Of a DNA stretch of 64,000 nucleotides, positions 3,804 through 11,265 are shown one piece after another (within the stretch, counting starts at the first letter, position 1; every line of letters starts with the position of its first letter). Below the pieces are notes generated by a model. The model did no database searches. It was not told where the DNA came from and worked only from the letters and a program-made list of their open reading frames with translations. The translations under genes and the position numbers were made by a program. Origin of the DNA: a virus. Location of the stretch: positions 36,285-100,284 of IMG/VR virus record IMGVR_UViG_3300035670_000083; one strand, written 5' to 3'.

Positions 3804-3832
3804 TAAATATATATCAAAAATAAAACTCCCTA

Positions 3833-4364: not shown

Positions 4365-4646
4365 ATGAGTACAATAACAGAAAAAAAATCAAAATCAAAA
4401 GTAGATGAAATACTTTCAAAGCCATTTAAGTTGATTCTTCACAACGATGATTATAATTCCTTCGAATGGGTAATAACTTGTTTGATTAAAGTTTGTGGAC
4501 ATGATCATCAACAAGCTGAGCAGTGTGCTCATATAGTTCATTTTAACGGTGAATGTGATGTTAAAAGAGGTGATTATGAGAAACTATCTGTGATGAAGGA
4601 GAAATTACAGAATGCTGGTTTGTCAGTTACTATAGAATCAAATTAG
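4365..4646 (+). CDS. clpS: ATP-dependent Clp protease adaptor ClpS
   Basis: LILHNDDYNSFEWV...AHIVHFNG signature. Confidence 0.9.
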   Translation: MSTITEKKSKSKVDEILSKPFKLILHNDDYNSFEWVITCLIKVCGHDHQQAEQCAHIVHFNGECDVKRGDYEKLSVMKEKLQNAGLSVTIESN

Positions 4647-4669
4647 TAAAGTATATCAAGAAATAGACT

Positions 4670-4701
4670 GAACCTCACATTACATATACATCTTGTTATA
4701 T
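4670..4701. repeat. attC-like half site A (right arm only)
   Basis: CTCACATTACATATACATCTTGTTA nearly identical to the right arm at 7072-7095. Confidence 0.7.
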
Positions 4702-4779
4702 TCAGTAATTTTTAAATTATTTTCAAAAAATCGTTTTTTTTTTTTATTAATATATAGAATATAAATATTATCAGAAGAA

Positions 4780-4818
4780 ATGAAAAATGTAAAACTATAT
4801 AAAGTGGATACGTATTAA
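4780..4818 (+). pseudogene. truncated cassette remnant MKNVKLYKVDTY
   Basis: late promoter at ~4748, MKxxKL start, stops after 12 codons, followed by a cassette end ACACATAAC. Confidence 0.4.
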
Positions 4819-4830
4819 TTTTTTTATTAC

Positions 4831-4880
4831 ACATAACGTTCCGATTATTTGCGTTCGGTGGGGCGTTACACCACCAATGA
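4831..4880. repeat. attC-like half site B (left arm)
   Basis: ACATAACGTTCCGATTATTTGCG..., no matching right arm/GTTA closing the stem. Confidence 0.55.
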
Positions 4881-4887
4881 TTATTAT

Positions 4888-5720
4888 ATGAGTAAAGAAA
4901 TGAGAAGGTTAATAGTTACTTTTAATAAGTTTGTTATTAAAGAAAAGTCTAATAATATTAAAAAATAGTTTCAAAATATGATGCTCCGTATGGAATTATT
5001 TTTGATGGGGAAAACAAAATATTAGTTGGTGATATGCACCAAACACCAGTTGAATTATCTAAAAAACTTGAAAATAAAGTAGTTAATGTTGCAAACAAAT
5101 ATGGTTATTATGGTGAAGGTATTGGTTTGGAACATAACGAAGCAATCACCAAATCATCTTTTTATGAAAGATTAGACCCCAAAAAACATTATGGTTCTTG
5201 GGATAGAAAATTAATTGAAAGTGGTGAAGTACCTGAAGATAAAAAATATTTTTTTTTGTATGCTTTGTTTTCAAATCCAAAAGAAAATCATAGATTAGAA
5301 AAATTATTGGAAAATACGGAAGAAGAAGATACAATTTTTTATGTCTTACTAAAAACTATACCCGATTGGTCAGCAGATATGGGTAAATTTAGTTTAGGAC
5401 AAAAAGAACTAAATAAATTTCTTAAAGAAATAAGTGAAAATGGAATTGATTTTATTCAAATGTCACAACAAAAAGCAGATGAAAAATCATTATCAGAATT
5501 TTTAGATTTAGGAGAAAAATTACAATGGCCTGAAAAAAATTGGCAAGATTATCCAAATATGGCAGGTAAATTTGCAAGAGTGGCGACAACCATTAGAGAC
5601 CAATTTTTAATTAATGCTGGACCTGGGGTTTATTTTGTCGGTGCGGGACATCTTAAAGATATTGTAAAAATGGGCAAAGAAAAAAAATTATCTTTAATAG
5701 GGGGCGAAAAAATCATGTAA
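4888..5720 (+). pseudogene. frameshifted cassette gene, TraB/GumN(TIKI)-like
   Basis: MSKEMRRLIVTFNKFVIKE... joins the 5034..5720 frame if one A is added in the A6 run 4960-4965; GDMH and YFVGAGHL motifs. Confidence 0.55.
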
Positions 5721-5733
5721 AAAATATTGTGTA

Positions 5734-5781
5734 TAACGTCCGATGATAAACAATCGCTTTAATGTTGTTTATCATTTGTTA
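5734..5781. repeat. attC-like site C (48 bp)
   Basis: TAAC-GTCCG-ATGATAAACAA-TCGCTTTAATG-TTGTTTATCAT-TT-GTTA. Confidence 0.9.
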
Positions 5782-5859
5782 TATTCAGTTAAATTTTTTC
5801 AATTATTTCAAAAAACCGTTTTCTTTATTAATATATAAAAGAAAAATAATATTAAAACT

Positions 5860-6534
5860 ATGAAACATATAAAAAAATATGAAACTTTTCTAGAAAAAAA
5901 ATGGATACTAGGAATAAATGAAAACATTTTTGATAAAATTGAATCACTAGTTAAGGGAAAATCAGACTCTGGTAAAATTATATCCGAATTCTTAACTAAG
6001 AACGGAATTAAAGAAACTGGGACTGCATATTCAATTCTCTATTTGGGCGGTGCTAATCCAGGCAAATCCGAATTAAGTCACCCATTTGATTATTTACATT
6101 ATACACCAGGTATCGCTAAGATTACAGAAGATGGTGTTTTAGTATTAAATGATGAAAAATCTAAATCATTAAAAACACCAGATACATTATCATTTCTAGC
6201 AATTATTGAAAAAGATGATATTGTTAAAAATTGGACATTTGGATTAAAACAAGGGTGTAGTGTAAATAAAAATGATTATACTTTTGATTTAACAAAGGAT
6301 ATTTCAACTCTAACTTTTAAAAAATCTATGTGGTCAATGTTGAAACAAACTTGGATTAAAGGAGAAGATGAAGTTGTAGAACTTGATAATGATATTACTG
6401 AACTTAAAGAGGAAGATACTATATCCTTCAAAACCCCTATGAATATGATAACTCTACAACAATGGGTTGATAAGTTGAATGAGACAGGATGGGTTAAAGA
6501 AAATAGTAAATATTTTAAAGAATATATAAAGTAG
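5860..6534 (+). CDS. cassette gene, hypothetical with capsid-targeting-like N-terminus
   Basis: MKHIKKYETFLE; TAATATATA at 5829-5837. Confidence 0.8.
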   Translation: MKHIKKYETFLEKKWILGINENIFDKIESLVKGKSDSGKIISEFLTKNGIKETGTAYSILYLGGANPGKSELSHPFDYLHYTPGIAKITEDGVLVLNDEKSKSLKTPDTLSFLAIIEKDDIVKNWTFGLKQGCSVNKNDYTFDLTKDISTLTFKKSMWSMLKQTWIKGEDEVVELDNDITELKEEDTISFKTPMNMITLQQWVDKLNETGWVKENSKYFKEYIK

Positions 6535-6617
6535 GCAATAATCCACAAATAAAAAACACCAATTCGTTAAGTGAAATTGATTATTTTATATCCACAATTG
6601 GAAAACGAAACAGAACT

Positions 6618-6665
6618 TAACGGTTGAGAATATGTGTTCGTTTTAATGACACATATTCTTTGTTA
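6618..6665. repeat. attC-like site D (48 bp)
   Basis: TAAC-GGTTG-AGAATATGTGT-TCGTTTTAATG-ACACATATTCT-TT-GTTA. Confidence 0.9.
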
Positions 6666-6691
6666 TATTTAGTATCAAAAATTTTATACAA

Positions 6692-6934
6692 ATGAAAAAA
6701 TGTAAATGTATTAAAGAATCTTCTTGGTTTTTAATTGATGATTCCTTCGATAAGAATTCTAAATTAAATGGTGGTGGATTTTCTTTTCAAGTAGGTAGTG
6801 AATATGATTATTTTGAAGAAGATACACCATTTGGAAATGGTATGTCGGTTATCCATCCTAAACATGGGAAAGAAAATCCTACTGGTTTTGATGAAAGAAG
6901 ATTCTACGAACACTTTGAAATAATAAACTCATAA
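6692..6934 (+). CDS. cassette gene, small hypothetical
   Basis: 80-aa ORF filling the interval between sites D and E. Confidence 0.75.
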   Translation: MKKCKCIKESSWFLIDDSFDKNSKLNGGGFSFQVGSEYDYFEEDTPFGNGMSVIHPKHGKENPTGFDERRFYEHFEIINS

Positions 6935-6952
6935 AATTTTTGATATTGAACC

Positions 6953-7095
6953 TAACGATACTCAGATATATTTAGGTTTTCTTTTTAATGTAGTGTGAGA
7001 TTTGAAACACTACCTGTCAATATACCAACAAACTCTATTAGAAGCACTTACCTTCAATTAACCACCGAATCTCACATTACATATACACCTTGTTA
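6953..7095. repeat. attC-like site E (chimeric, 143 bp)
   Basis: left arm of G/J type, right arm of I/A type, inner stem ATGTAGTGTGAGATT/AATCTCACATTACAT. Confidence 0.75.
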
Positions 7096-7204
7096 TGTGT
7101 AGGTGTGATTATTTACCACCAAACTCTATTCGGAGAACTGAAAGAAAATTTTAGAAAAAAGAAGGGAGGGAAATTTAATTCAGAATATTTTATATATATC
7201 ATCT

Positions 7205-8020
7205 ATGATACTCAAATTTAATCAGTTTATAACTGAAAGACTTTCCTATTCTGAAGATGTTGAGATGATCTCAAAGATTATAATTGAATACTTATATGGT
7301 AAAGAAAACTGGGAATCAGAAGAAGTGATAAAAATAGATAATTCGGTTATAAATGAAGTAAGAATACAATTCATAGATAATTTAAGTAAGTTAGGAAAAA
7401 AATCATCATTTAATCCAAATAAATCAGATTATAATAATCGTATGATATTTTTAGAATTTGATCCAGATGAAATCACCGAAGGATTGTTAAATCATGAAGT
7501 ATTTCATGGGTGGGAATGGATTCGAAATGAAGGAAAACATTTAACTAATTCTTTTCAATTCGCAATTATTCAATTAAATAATTACTTTGAAGAAGATGAA
7601 AACATATCTGAAATTATTCAACTATTTTATTTAATGTCAGATGCTGAAATTAGATCTCATTTAAATAGTGATATATTTGAATTTAAAAGATGGAAAGAGG
7701 ATAAAAATACCACTTCGATGGAAGAAATAGATTTATTAATAGAGGAAACAGATACATTTCAAAATTATCAATTTGTGAAAAAATTTAATCTAAACGAATA
7801 TTTAAATAAATTGAGTACTGAGAAATTAGATGAATTTATATCAGCAGTTGAACAAATGAAGTATATGAAAGATGGTGAAGAGTCTGAAATTATGGTGAAG
7901 AGATTTTCTGATTTAGAGAGAAGTAAATTTATACAAAAGTTAAATATTATACACAAACAACAAAGTGAAAAAATTACTAAATATTTAGGAAAATTAATAT
8001 TATATTTCAGAAACTCTTAA
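7205..8020 (+). CDS. cassette gene, HExxH metallopeptidase-like with capsid-targeting-like N-terminus
   Basis: MILKFNQFITE; LNHEVFHG. Confidence 0.7.
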   Translation: MILKFNQFITERLSYSEDVEMISKIIIEYLYGKENWESEEVIKIDNSVINEVRIQFIDNLSKLGKKSSFNPNKSDYNNRMIFLEFDPDEITEGLLNHEVFHGWEWIRNEGKHLTNSFQFAIIQLNNYFEEDENISEIIQLFYLMSDAEIRSHLNSDIFEFKRWKEDKNTTSMEEIDLLIEETDTFQNYQFVKKFNLNEYLNKLSTEKLDEFISAVEQMKYMKDGEESEIMVKRFSDLERSKFIQKLNIIHKQQSEKITKYLGKLILYFRNS

Positions 8021-8061
8021 ATTTTTTTTAGAAAAAATTTATTTGATACATTTTTAATTAC

Positions 8062-8069
8062 TATATTTG
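8062..8069 (+). promoter_or_regulatory. Bacteroidota-type -7 box TATATTTG
   Basis: TAnnTTTG, with TTTG at 8042-8045 upstream. Confidence 0.55.
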
Positions 8070-8088
8070 CGTATATAATAAAAATAAA

Positions 8089-8342
8089 ATGGAAAATCTC
8101 AAACAAGAAAATAACTACGAAAAATTTGTTATCAGACAGAAGGTGGTTGGGTATTAAAAGAAGGCGTGGCTAAAAAGGAAGAGATAAGTTTTTTTGTTGT
8201 TAGTCCTGATGGTAAAGAACTTACTTGTTTAGATGGTTCAAATATATTCTCTTCTGTTGATAAATCTGATTTGTTAGAATCGTTTAATATGAGGTTTAAA
8301 ACAAACTGTGTTAGTGTAGAAAGACCAAATGTTTTTGAATAA
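8089..8342 (+). pseudogene. frameshifted small cassette gene
   Basis: MENLKQENNYEKFVI then a 1-nt shift near 8135 into EGGWVLKEGVAKKE...PNVFE*. Confidence 0.55.
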
Positions 8343-8368
8343 GAAAATAATTGAAAAATAATTCAATA

Positions 8369-8448
8369 TAACGGTTGCAAATATGAGAAGTAAATTTTTT
8401 CCATAAAAAAATAGAAAAATCAAAATTTATTTCTTATATTTGTTGTTA
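8369..8448. repeat. attC-like site F (80 bp)
   Basis: TAACGGTT-GCAAATATGAGAAGTAAATTTT...AAAATTTATTTCTTATATTTGT-TGTTA. Confidence 0.85.
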
Positions 8449-8474
8449 TATTTAGTAAAAATTAATTTATACAT

Positions 8475-8654
8475 ATGAAATACGAAGCACTTAAAAAAGA
8501 ATATTATGCAGTTTATGAAAAAGAACCAAGACACCAGAATGAAAAGAATGGTGTGATACTTGCACCATATAACACGAAAGAAGAAGCTGAACAAGCGAGA
8601 ATTAAATATGGTTATAGTGATGATAACTACTATGTTGATAAACTCATAAATTAA
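8475..8654 (+). CDS. cassette gene, 59-aa hypothetical (below ORF-track cutoff)
   Basis: MKYEALKKEYYAVYEKEPRHQNEKNGVILAPYNTKEEAEQARIKYGYSDDNYYVDKLIN*, fills the F-G interval. Confidence 0.75.
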   Translation: MKYEALKKEYYAVYEKEPRHQNEKNGVILAPYNTKEEAEQARIKYGYSDDNYYVDKLIN

Positions 8655-8667
8655 TTTTTATTGAATA

Positions 8668-8789
8668 TAACGATACTCAGATATATTTAGGTTTTCTTTT
8701 TAATATATACTAAAAACAATTTATGAAAGATAATAAACACATAAAAAGTTTCAACGATCATCAAGAAAACTTGAATATATCTGATGTTA
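8668..8789. repeat. attC-like site G; loop contains late promoter and gene start
   Basis: TAACGATAC-TCAGATATATTTAGGTTTTC...GAAAACTTGAATATATCTGA-TGTTA; TAATATATA 8701-8709; ATG 8723. Confidence 0.9.
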
Positions 8790-9004
8790 GTGGTAGTGAA
8801 ATATTAAAATATCTTGATGATAAATATCATGTAAAAGATAATCTAATGATTGTTGGTAGATTTGATAAGAACAAAAAATATAATTATATTCAATTGTCTA
8901 ATGAAATATCAAAGGTATTTGGTTTGTCAACACAACAATCATTAGATTTAGTAGAAAAGTGGAAAGATATTAGATTTGAGAAAATTATGAAAAATAGATT
9001 TTAA
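8723..9004 (+). CDS. cassette gene starting inside site G
   Basis: MKDNKHIKSFNDHQENLNISDVS then unique C-terminus. Confidence 0.8.
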   Translation: MKDNKHIKSFNDHQENLNISDVSGSEILKYLDDKYHVKDNLMIVGRFDKNKKYNYIQLSNEISKVFGLSTQQSLDLVEKWKDIRFEKIMKNRF

Positions 9005-9018
9005 TATTTAATTATCAC

Positions 9019-9066
9019 TAACGTCCGATGATAAACAATCGTTTTAATGTTGTTTATCATTTGTTA
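9019..9066. repeat. attC-like site H (48 bp)
   Basis: differs from site C at one loop base. Confidence 0.9.
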
Positions 9067-9177
9067 TGTGTAGGTGTGGATTATTTACTACTAAACTTCA
9101 ATCGGAGAACTGAACAAAAATTTTAAAACAAAAAGAAGGGTGGGTTTTTTAATCTTACTATTTATATATAAAAGAAA

Positions 9178-9606
9178 ATGATGAAAGATTTGAGACAGTT
9201 TATTAAAACAACCATACGTGAGTTTTTGAATGAAGCATACATTGATGAGGATGGTAATTTAAAAGACTTTAATGATAAAATATTCTATGATTTTGATAAA
9301 ATTAAAAAGTTTGTAGATTGGTTTCAAAGTGAATATAGTGATTATACTCATAAACAGGGTTGGTCTATATTCGATTCTGATACAGAAGCACCTAATGAAA
9401 AATATCATAGTGAAAGAACTTTTAATGGTAAAAAATTGAATGGATATTATTGGCAAGTTCAAAGATTAGATTCACCAAGTGATGACGAAGCATTATTTGG
9501 GAAATTACCAAATGATTATAAGGCTGATGATTTAGCAAGAAAGTTAGGTTTAATGGTTGATGAATACGGTGTGGTTTATGGTTGGGATGGACAATCTTTT
9601 TTATAG
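9178..9606 (+). CDS. cassette gene, hypothetical with capsid-targeting-like N-terminus
   Basis: MKDLRQFIKTTIREFLNE; TTATATA upstream. Confidence 0.8.
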   Translation: MMKDLRQFIKTTIREFLNEAYIDEDGNLKDFNDKIFYDFDKIKKFVDWFQSEYSDYTHKQGWSIFDSDTEAPNEKYHSERTFNGKKLNGYYWQVQRLDSPSDDEALFGKLPNDYKADDLARKLGLMVDEYGVVYGWDGQSFL

Positions 9607-9676
9607 TGTGTGGGATTTTTCTTTTAAAATTTTCAACCGAAATATTGATTAGAACGATGAATGGAACACTTACACA

Positions 9677-9766
9677 TAACGGATGGGTGTATATGTAGGT
9701 TTTTTAACTTTAAAATTTAATATATACTTATGAACTGAATAAAAAACTTACATATACACCTTGTTA
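9677..9766. repeat. attC-like site I (90 bp); late promoter in loop
   Basis: TAACGGATG-GGTGTATATGTAGGTTTTTT...AAAAAACTTACATATACACC-TTGTTA; TAATATATA 9718-9726. Confidence 0.9.
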
Positions 9767-9797
9767 TGTGTTAGTAAAAAATAAAAGGAAAAAGAAT

Positions 9798-10103
9798 ATG
9801 AAAAGATTAAAATACATTAAAAGATTCAATGAATCAAATGAAATGGATATTGAAATTGAATTAATTGGTCCTGATATAGATGATATTTTAGATGCAATTA
9901 ACTTCATAAACAATAACTATGATGTGAGTGTAAATCCAACAGATTTTCAAGAAGGTTCTGATATGCCTTATGCTCATAAAAGAAATCAAAATTATTCAAT
10001 TTTTGTTAAGTTAAATCCTAGTGGTGATGAAAAAAGTCATATCAGATTTATTAATGATTTGTTGGATGAAAACGGATTCTCTTGTAGGTTGTATATGATT
10101 TAA
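9798..10103 (+). CDS. cassette gene, acidic hypothetical with capsid-targeting-like N-terminus
   Basis: MKRLKYIKRFNES; ATG 9798 preferred over 9768. Confidence 0.8.
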   Translation: MKRLKYIKRFNESNEMDIEIELIGPDIDDILDAINFINNNYDVSVNPTDFQEGSDMPYAHKRNQNYSIFVKLNPSGDEKSHIRFINDLLDENGFSCRLYMI

Positions 10104-10130
10104 TGATATTATTTATTTTCTTATTACACA

Positions 10131-10260
10131 TAACGATACTCAGATATATTTAGGTTTTCATTTTTAATATATAAACAAAAATAATTTAACAACATGAAAA
10201 GTTCAAATAATGTAAAAAGTTTCAAAGAGTTCAATGAAAACTTGAATATATCTGATGTTA
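10131..10260. repeat. attC-like site J; loop contains late promoter and gene start
   Basis: same arms as site G; TAATATATA 10165-10173; ATG 10194. Confidence 0.9.
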
Positions 10261-10424
10261 GTGATAGTTTTTTGTCACCCGAAGAATTTTTAATTGATTG
10301 GGAAGGTAAAGATGATTCAACACACCCCAATCAAGATATTAGAGACGAATGGACTAAAAGAATTAATCAATTAAAAATTTATTCAAAAATGGTTCTTGAT
10401 AACACTTTAAAAAATTATCACTAA
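10194..10424 (+). CDS. cassette gene starting inside site J
   Basis: MKSSNNVKSFKEFNENLNISDVS...; its stop codon is the TAA of the last TAAC. Confidence 0.8.
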   Translation: MKSSNNVKSFKEFNENLNISDVSDSFLSPEEFLIDWEGKDDSTHPNQDIRDEWTKRINQLKIYSKMVLDNTLKNYH

Positions 10425-10460
10425 CTATATTATATATGTAATGACCTATAAATAATTGAT
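10416..10460. other. candidate attI-like primary integration site
   Basis: final ATCACTAAC not followed by G or a hairpin, just 5' of the integrase. Confidence 0.55.
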
Positions 10461-10461
10461 T

Positions 10462-11265
10462 ATGAATGAAAAGGGTAAGTCAACTTTAAAGATTTGTGAA
10501 CAAAAACTTAATTATCTAAATTATTCTAAAAGAACGATTGATAATTATTTATCACATATTAATAGATTTTTAAAATCACAAAATAAATCATGTTTGCATT
10601 TATCATCTAATGATTTTCAGTCATATTTAGATAATTACAAATTTACTTCTATATCGCAACAAAACCAAGTTATTAATTCTATTCGATTTCTTTATAAAGA
10701 AGTTCTCGGTAAAAAGTATGATAAAGTCTCTTTCAAAAGACCTAAATCTGAAAAGAAACTTCCACAGGTTATAGATGGTGATTATATAAAATCACAATTA
10801 TCTAAAATTGATAATCTTAAACATAAGGCAATCCTCACACTAACATACTCGGTTGGATTAAGGGTTTCTGAAATAACCAATCTTAAAATTGAAGACATTG
10901 ATTCAAAAAGAATGATCATTCATATAAAAAATGCAAAAGGAAAGAAAGATAGGATTGTTCCACTTTCTGAAAATGTTTTAAATTTGCTTAGATATTATTG
11001 GAAACAATATAAACCAAAAGAATACCTTTTCAATGGATTATCCGGTAGATATTCAATTCAATCCTGTCAGAAAATATACAAAAAATATATTGATGAAAAA
11101 TCATCATTTCATACATTAAGACATTCTTCATTTACTAATTTACTTGAGTCAGGAACAGATTTGCGGATAATACAGAAAATAGCAGGTCATTCAAGCTCAA
11201 AAACAACCGAAATATATACTCACGTTTCAAATCAAATTTTAAGGAAAGTTAAATTACCCATCTAA
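10462..11265 (+). CDS. IntI-related tyrosine recombinase (N-terminal SAM-like domain plus catalytic domain)
   Basis: YSKRTIDNY, SQQNQVINSIRFLY, GLRVSE (R), KGKKDR (K), HTLRH, GHSSSKTTEIY. Confidence 0.92.
   Translation: MNEKGKSTLKICEQKLNYLNYSKRTIDNYLSHINRFLKSQNKSCLHLSSNDFQSYLDNYKFTSISQQNQVINSIRFLYKEVLGKKYDKVSFKRPKSEKKLPQVIDGDYIKSQLSKIDNLKHKAILTLTYSVGLRVSEITNLKIEDIDSKRMIIHIKNAKGKKDRIVPLSENVLNLLRYYWKQYKPKEYLFNGLSGRYSIQSCQKIYKKYIDEKSSFHTLRHSSFTNLLESGTDLRIIQKIAGHSSSKTTEIYTHVSNQILRKVKLPI

Follow-up and report, generated by a model that had tools for sequence, protein, structure and literature searches.

Recognition of folded hairpins is the defining peculiarity of integrons and is usually credited to a domain specific to the integrase IntI. 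Integron cassettes are bounded by complementary heptanucleotides, the R' and R'' boxes of the attC site (59-base element), and IntI recombines attC as a folded bottom-strand hairpin, with crossover between A and C on that strand (PMC2727003; PMC5027507). An IntegronFinder survey of phage genomes recovered only canonical integrons and clusters of attC sites lacking integron-integrases (CALINs) (PMC9892861). Here, we describe an array of short plus-strand open reading frames (ORFs) in a 64-kb window of the 100-kb viral contig IMGVR_UViG_3300035670_000083 (IMG/VR; completeness approximately 18% according to CheckV). The array spans approximately 4667 to 10425 of the window, and a tyrosine recombinase gene follows it. 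Its ORFs are parted by sites of the pattern ...TAAC–hairpin–GTTA..., and we refer to the DNA from one GTTA (start arm) to the next TAAC (end arm) as a unit, and to the hairpin DNA between TAAC and GTTA as the centre. The start of a unit is typically complementary to its own end; this own-end pairing is confirmed as real, exceeds chance by far, and extends to a large family of arrays in huge phages. No account of such an array type turned up in literature searches.

To quantify the pairing in the window, each of nine unit starts was scored by anchored complementarity against the reverse complement of each of ten unit ends. An earlier note on this DNA had reported that six units begin with the near reverse complement of their own ends; all of the coordinates and strings that it quoted are present in the sequence, and in these six units the match extends over approximately 14–30 nt, with the own end as the best partner (one tie). 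All arms given here are on the plus strand. Unit 6662–6956 scores 18, with 22 of 26 nt complementary between its start arm (6662–6687) and its end arm (6931–6956), the crossover being placed within the final AAC of the latter. Unit 8445–8671 scores 22 (24/26 between 8445–8470 and 8646–8671), and unit 8786–9022 scores 20 (22/26), its paired length reaching 30 when G·T is allowed; the start arm of this last unit (8786–8815) lies within ORF 8723–9004 and its end arm (8993–9022) overlaps the stop codon. The arms of unit 9063–9680 are 15 nt long (9063–9077 and 9666–9680), pair over a length of 15, and score 13, tied with the paralogous start at 7092. Unit 9763–10134 scores 16 with one 1-nt indel, seen as a 1-nt bulge in the pairing of 9763–9788 with 10109–10134, while unit 10257–10425 scores 15 (start arm 10257–10273, within ORF 10194–10424; end arm 10409–10425, belonging to the last cassette and abutting the attI-like junction). 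The remaining combinations score mostly 4–9, and ends from the same arm family score 10–13. The paralogous units 6662–6956 and 8445–8671 are alike in their first 13 nt and in their flanks; farther out, both arms change in a compensating manner.

The pairing was then followed in related arrays. Simple motif scans for unit starts and ends were too unspecific in AT-rich DNA, and a hairpin-based site finder was used instead. The recombinase has 207 relatives at 58–81% identity in IMG/VR contigs, many of them longer than 100 kb, and the finder located arrays of 1–17 sites upstream of most integrase homologues with enough flank; these related arrays sit in huge-phage contigs (approximately 70 contigs or loci). 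Sites range from 40 to approximately 190 nt, with centre length classes of 40, approximately 70, approximately 80, approximately 105–123, and approximately 180 nt, and the units are short (median approximately 250–390 nt). Across 231 distinct units, the median score of a start with its own end is 13, compared to 5 both across the site and for random pairs; the own end scores higher than the one across the site in 191 units, lower in 23, and equally in 17. A hold-out set of 67 units, taken from loci retrieved by DNA motif rather than by protein, gave 13 for own ends and 6 across the site, with the own end better in 59/67. As the earlier note had stated, neighbours across a site usually do not match, their score being at the random level.

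The arms were also compared position by position, counting the G of GTTA and the C of AAC as position 1 and moving outward. Positions 1–4 (GTTA/TAAC) are invariant, whereas positions 5–10 and 12–15 are variable (1.0–1.9 bits of entropy) and nevertheless Watson-Crick paired in 70–84% of own pairs, compared to 28–58% of shuffled ones. At most two mismatches among these ten variable positions are found in 151/231 own pairs, in approximately 6 shuffled pairs, and in 8/231 pairs across the site, and the perfectly paired hexamers at positions 5–10 comprise 49 different sequences. Because the two arms covary across units, the pairing itself must be under selection. Position 11 is almost never Watson-Crick paired, being occupied by a conserved G·T: the end arm carries T in 229/231 units, and the start arm carries G in 170, T in 32, C in 16, and A in just 11. 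Pairing falls at position 16 and reaches background by approximately 23–26, with only a minority of units paired beyond position 15. The modal paired length is 15 within a full range of 10–30 nt, approximately a quarter of units reach 20–30, and the window cassettes fall at the long end of this range. Chance or family-level similarity as the cause of the pairing is ruled out by the shuffles and the across-site control.

Where the cassettes begin and end follows from the position of the crossover, which five independent lines of sequence comparison place at TAA|C, to the left of each site, and not at GTT. In two homologous cassette pairs found in different contexts, similarity runs from the TAAC upstream of the centre to the next TAAC(G). 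Over all loci, blocks of high identity end at TAAC in 18/32 cases on the left and 17/24 on the right, compared to none on the left and 4 on the right for GTT; in 101 non-syntenic pairs of units that share their arms, identity of 80% or more was seen 37 times for the upstream centre and 6 times for the downstream one. At approximately 70 loci, the attI consists of a variable cassette end, TAAC, and then a conserved TAT-N-ATATAT located 30–50 nt upstream of the recombinase gene, so conservation is confined to the right of TAAC and variation to its left. A 960-nt cassette, 99.9% identical at three loci, lies beside attI in two of them (L010:9011–9970 and L009:2634–3593) and mid-array in the third (L027:583–1542); the shared block consists of TAAC, centre, unit, and TAAC, and the genome flanking it in L027 is 97% identical, which points to a recent relocation of a cassette. 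Among cultured phages, the Polaribacter isolates Freya_1, Freya_5, and Freya_10 encode an integrase 37% identical to the window recombinase, and they differ in whether they carry blocks of up to approximately 4.9 kb immediately upstream of the integrase, with junctions exactly after AAC.

On these comparisons, the plus-strand cassette reads C, centre, start arm beginning with GTTA, gene, and end arm closing with TAA, such that the hairpin centre moves with the downstream unit. The earlier note had treated the inter-site unit as the mobile entity, which is wrong, since the breakpoints at TAA|C add the preceding centre to the unit. Its broader proposal, that these are mobile units whose ends are brought together, gains support from the covariation and the relocation, although its boundaries were off by one hairpin; because the ends of a unit covary, they must at some point be brought together. 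ORFs 8723–9004 and 10194–10424 begin in the centres at 8672–8785 and 10135–10256, respectively, and read through GTTA into the unit. With the crossover upstream of the centre, the promoter-like motif, start codon, N-terminal peptide, and payload all belong to one cassette, and ORFs that start inside hairpins need not have been fused in frame across the recombination point.

The folded strand can likewise be assigned. Arm pairs that are not Watson-Crick are mostly G·T on the plus strand, which correspond to A·C mismatches on the minus strand, and with DNA parameters the plus-strand hairpin is steadier than the minus-strand hairpin in 218/227 reconstituted sites, by a mean of 3.95 kcal/mol. Nearly all centres have G immediately after AAC. 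Since TAA|C falls on the 5' arm and the recombinase gene lies downstream in the same orientation, the plus strand is the exact counterpart of the integron bottom strand, and the longest ORF is in sense on this strand in 212/224 cassettes. The centres themselves fold into an inner stem whose arms resemble the outer arms in sequence and which carries a second conserved G·T, at pair 14/15 from GTT, in approximately 84% of 254 centres (e.g., 9681–9762). This inner pair has its G on the 5' arm and its T on the 3' arm, mirroring the outer G·T at position 11, and on this model the opposed marks give the folded site a pseudo-two-fold symmetry. There is no trade-off between inner and outer stem length (r = 0.09).

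The junction of a circular cassette was modelled by joining the end arm of a cassette to its own centre and start arm. Such a junction is predicted to form one continuous hairpin with a bulge of 3–5 nt immediately 3' of AAC; the bulge is one-sided, with 3–5 nt on the cleaved arm and 0–1 nt opposite. The mean predicted energy is −23.1 kcal/mol for the circle junction and −16.3 kcal/mol for the corresponding array site, a difference of 6.8 kcal/mol, and the circle junction is the steadier in 196/227 cases. For the six window units, the predicted values in the circle and in the array are −20.0 and −9.2 kcal/mol (6662–6956), −26.4 and −15.6 (8445–8671), −27.9 and −15.8 (8786–9022), −19.6 and −10.0 (9063–9680), −25.6 and −23.0 (9763–10134), and −27.3 and −17.9 (10257–10425).

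Our preferred explanation, to which we assign a probability of roughly 70%, is that the units belong to integron-type cassettes in which the two ends together make up the recombinase arm next to the crossover, within a folded site that is complete only in the circle. Starting from the observed covariation, crossover side, strand asymmetry, and cassette relocation, we infer that folding takes place in single-stranded DNA, that a circular form exists, and that a particular monomer, the one on the outer arm, performs the cleavage; the circle would be the simplest state that joins the two cassette ends. In this mechanism, the cassettes would be moved by the adjacent Xer/IntI-like tyrosine recombinase, which lacks the IntI insertion. 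Closing into a circle would make the end arm, centre, and start arm contiguous, allowing the plus strand to fold into one long hairpin with an outer stem of typically 15 bp (GTTA/TAAC, six free pairs, G·T at position 11, and four free pairs) and sometimes 20–30 bp, the 3–5 nt bulge 3' of AAC, and the inner stem with its mirrored G·T. The fold would imitate a two-armed core site for a tyrosine recombinase, and the outer stem would be the arm of the cleaving monomer beside the scissile TAA|C, analogous to the R box of attC.

If the recombinase binds the folded plus strand by shape rather than by sequence, the arm could drift provided that both strands change together, and the ends of one cassette would covary because they are the two strands of its outer arm. 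The monomer on the outer arm would cleave TAA|C and exchange the strand with attI or another site. The outer arm would be a duplex only with the ends of one cassette side by side, as in the circle, and selection on integration would keep the ends complementary while leaving their sequence free. The G·T marks, which would exist only in the folded plus strand, are candidates for directing the choice of strand and for discriminating the folded form from duplex DNA. A site in the array would then be a hybrid, made of the end arm of a neighbour and the centre and start arm of the cassette itself, with most of the outer stem lost.

Several observations weigh against this explanation. Sites in the array are without an outer stem, yet cassettes must be excised from them, a step that the model leaves unexplained. 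Approximately 17% of units do not pair with their own ends. The case for single-strand folding consists of the covariation and the G·T asymmetry. The one-sided bulge lies on the cleaved arm, whereas the extrahelical bases of attC lie on the opposite arm (PMC2727003). Families of centres are common to unrelated payloads, which means that there is also exchange at other places or homologous recombination inside centres. Finally, own-end pairing shows no trend with distance from attI (rho 0.07, p 0.21), and relaxed selection after integration is therefore not seen; the persistence of pairing along the array fits continued cassette cycling or young arrays.

Among described systems, integrons provide the closest comparison. 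The locus shares with them an array of single-gene cassettes beside a tyrosine recombinase gene, with attI between the two, and the Freya isolates differ by blocks inserted at that junction. The sites, like attC, are imperfect palindromes: AAC/GTT boxes lie on the outside, the repeats within are similar to the outer repeats (1L-2L...2R-1R), and the top varies. Crossover is placed in the AAC of one strand, with G next, as on the bottom strand of attC (PMC2727003), and that strand folds better; the polarity of the recombinase gene relative to the folding strand is also the same. Both systems, class 1 integrons included, also have cassettes whose start complements their own end and array sites that combine parts of two cassettes.

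The extent of this shared pairing was measured in a class 1 control of 12 different cassettes from seven plasmids (L116–L123), with intI1 on the plus strand and the same measures applied; the set is small, and one or two of its sites (cmlA1, orfF) may be misplaced, which would lower the class 1 figures. The perfect own-end runs are 10, 12, 11, 4, 4, 8, 12, 11, 4, 12, 4, and 7 nt, such that 7/12 cassettes pair over 8–12 nt and 6/12 over 10–12 nt; the median anchored score is 9.5 for own ends and 5 across the site, and the paired fraction is at least 0.67 through position 11 and at background from position 13. These values suggest that own-end pairing in classical cassettes extends past the textbook 7 nt. 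The integron baseline of approximately 7 bp adopted in the earlier note was hence too low, and its contrast with much shorter integron pairing was overstated: the typical excess of the 15-bp phage arm is approximately 3–4 bp, with a long tail of 20–30 bp in approximately a quarter of units.

There are several differences from integrons. The phage own-end stem usually measures 15 bp and can reach 30 bp, compared to an R box of 7 nt by definition and 8–12 nt in seven of the 12 class 1 cassettes, and it carries a conserved G·T at position 11 that is mirrored in the inner arm. In place of the two-sided unpaired spacer of 5–6 nt and the opposite-arm extrahelical bases of attC, the phage site has a one-sided bulge and G·T wobbles. 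The phage genes are in sense on the folding strand (212/224), whereas class 1 genes are on the minus strand in the same orientation; many phage cassettes hold a promoter-like motif, and even a start codon, within the site, whereas integron genes are mostly promoterless. The host is a huge phage.

The recombinase also differs from IntI. Its gene (10456–11265, plus strand) encodes a 269-aa Xer/IntI-like protein with a SAM-like N domain and a phage-integrase catalytic domain (Pfam). The top NCBIfam models are those for archaeal XerA/integron integrase and the integron-integrase subfamily, all under their cut-offs: the best, NF040815 (archaeal XerA), scores 175.8 against a cut-off of 220, and since every Xer model falls under its cut-off, an equivalog-level match to XerC, XerD, or XerA is absent. 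The IntI model TIGR02249 scores 160 bits (cut-off 265), and its match falls into two stretches covering model positions 3–180 and 254–312 only; because positions 181–253 are unmatched, the IntI-specific segment, the extra 20–35 or so residues between the catalytic patches, is absent.

In this respect, the phage enzyme resembles the Xer proteins. XerCD integrates single-stranded CTX phage DNA via a folded attP hairpin, and the two systems have in common a Xer-type recombinase without the insertion and, on the model proposed here, a single-stranded hairpin that mimics a duplex core, and the exchange of one strand pair. CTX integration differs in its use of host enzymes and a single dif target, and it has no cassette array, no attI adjacent to the recombinase gene, and no covarying free arms. 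Xer/dif and XerA systems are similar in protein size, domain make-up, and arms of approximately 11–15 bp around a short central region; dif, however, is one conserved duplex site per replicon, whereas here there are hundreds of sites with arms that are free in sequence but paired.

The strongest of the alternatives, which we nonetheless regard as unlikely, is that own-end pairing acts in the integrated state. Long-range pairing of the two arms in single-stranded array DNA would loop out the gene, such that the two TAA|C points and the two flanking centre hairpins meet in a branched junction that the recombinase resolves, excising the cassette. This would account for the movement of cassettes from array sites that have no local outer stem, where the across-site score is at the random level, and it agrees with the retention of own-end pairing at all array ranks and with the shortness of the units (median approximately 250–390 nt). 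Loops of 200–1000 nt on AT-rich stems of 15 bp would be weak, however, and classical integrons excise cassettes from hybrid sites without such pairing while class 1 cassettes bear the same signature. The proposal is also compatible with the circle model, and both may hold.

A much less probable alternative is that the pairing operates in RNA, with the 5' and 3' ends of the cassette transcript pairing (G·U allowed) to protect, process, or regulate the mRNA. The wobbles are indeed on the sense strand, the arms abut or overlap start and stop codons, and the promoter-like TWAATATATA stands upstream of the start arm in the centres beginning at 8672, 9681, and 10135. The same motif is found approximately 50 nt downstream of the start arm in the units beginning at 4695 and 5778, and a variant of it approximately 90 nt downstream in the unit beginning at 9063; since the motif is downstream of the start arm, a transcript of these three units' own would not contain that arm. 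Moreover, the arms start exactly at the crossover's invariant GTTA/TAAC and prolong the centre hairpin, the conserved G·T is mirrored in the inner arm around the crossover, and own-end pairing is equally present in class 1 cassettes, whose genes lie on the opposite strand.

We give still less credence to the idea that the complementarity is a functionless relic, left either by the birth of a cassette from a palindrome cut mid-way or by quasi-palindrome correction during circle replication. Arm length is variable (10–30 nt) and pairing past position 15 occurs in a minority of units, as might be expected of a relic. Against this, the arms are highly diverse yet paired, the paralogues differ by compensation, and pairing stops sharply after position 15 in most units; correction would also erase a G·T, whereas the non-Watson-Crick G·T at position 11 is kept in 170/231 units. 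The least credible reading takes the unit as a small element with terminal inverted repeats, comparable to a miniature inverted-repeat transposable element or small insertion sequence, and the hairpins as target or spacer DNA: inverted repeats of 14–30 nt with the same first 4 nt do bound short units, but they are specific to each unit and covary, unlike one transposase-binding sequence, a check of genes and domains in the window found no transposase and the tyrosine recombinase as the only recombinase nearby, and the reading is rejected because the moved block takes in the upstream centre and has TAAC at either border, with GTTA never forming the left one.

Returning to the folded-site explanation, a more far-reaching version of it is possible, and we put it forward tentatively, as rather doubtful in its entirety. 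A recombinase without the insertion would run a full integron-like cycle in huge phages on folded single-stranded sites, with the duplex of the cleaving arm (15 bp, marked by G·T) supplied only by the ends of one cassette; circles or self-folded cassettes would be full substrates and integrated junctions crippled ones, a built-in bias tuned by the G·T and by arm length. If this is true, hairpin-based cassette recombination would not require the IntI insertion, and it may predate integrons or be more widespread than they are. From sequence alone, the covariation is the strongest sign to be had that a phage recombinase of this type recognises a folded hairpin and not a duplex sequence. With the crossover, folding strand, cassette limits, and arm length with its G·T fixed, there is now a basis for the design of assays and for the annotation of hundreds of arrays.

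The remaining features of the window array, all on the plus strand, can be set out from its distal end. The gene clpS (4365–4646) lies upstream of the array, the first part of which (4667–6621) is degenerate and comprises a truncated centre (4667–4694) and units 4695–4837, approximately 4838–5737, and 5778–6621, with a 40-nt hairpin centre at 5738–5777 that belongs to the family of 9023–9062; these three units do not pair with their own ends or do so only weakly (5778–6621), and the same is true of 7092–8372. The start at 4695–4724 is complementary to the non-adjacent end at 8343–8372, 3.6 kb away (score 22, 87% over 30 nt), and the units between 4695 and 8372 begin or end with arms from other families; among these, 7092–8372 is a composite unit with a start arm of one family and an end arm of another, the latter matching the start at 4695. 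The match suggests broken or fused cassettes of one family. The site at 6957–7091 is chimeric and not intact, and it was missed by the hairpin finder: its first 33 nt or so are a centre of the 8672 type, and the remainder belongs to another centre family, which resembles a miniature cassette with start-arm-like and end-arm-like halves. This site is probably a deletion between two adjacent sites, and together with the poorly pairing distal and composite units it looks like a product of internal deletion.

The intact centres each move, on the limits given above, with the unit downstream. The 40-nt centre at 6622–6661 accompanies unit 6662–6956, and centre plus start arm are 100% identical in another locus (L015), where the identity begins at TAAC. 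The centre of the cassette ending at 8671 is 72 nt long (8373–8444) and has 22 inner pairs; that at 8672–8785, of 114 nt, holds the promoter-like TTAATATATA and the start codon of ORF 8723–9004; those of the cassettes ending at 9680 and 10134 measure 40 nt (9023–9062) and 82 nt (9681–9762), respectively; and the centre of the last cassette, of 122 nt (10135–10256), contains the start of ORF 10194–10424. The attI-like junction, at 10423–10455, consists of the variable cassette end, TAAC, and the conserved TAT-N-ATATAT beside the recombinase gene.

Compared by blastn with cultured and deposited phages, the array yielded only three short matches and no close relative. The deposited genome of a 462-kb uncultured huge phage (LR756500.1; L004) has at 8001–8096 a site of the 72-nt class that is 88% identical to window positions 8369–8465, and the site finder recognised four cassette units in this genome. 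Cassettes with arms of the GTTATGTGTAGG type have a conserved leader of approximately 115 nt and a conserved trailer of approximately 75 nt around a differing middle (9063–9177 and 9603–9680 in the window; also 7092–7200), and this leader and trailer are common to many contigs (L010, L022, L037, L047, L078, and L097). The motif TWAATATATA occurs 18 times in the window compared to 2.7 expected (e.g., at 1356 and 1982 on the minus strand and at 3804, 4747, 5828, 8700, 9717, 10164, 15110, and 17963 on the plus strand), and most copies checked against the ORF list are just upstream of ORF starts on the matching strand, making it a candidate phage promoter element. Outside the array, the minus-strand ORF 2044–2691 (215 aa) contains tandem repeats of 12/18 nt in 14–17 copies at 2047–2406 and therefore encodes a repetitive low-complexity protein.

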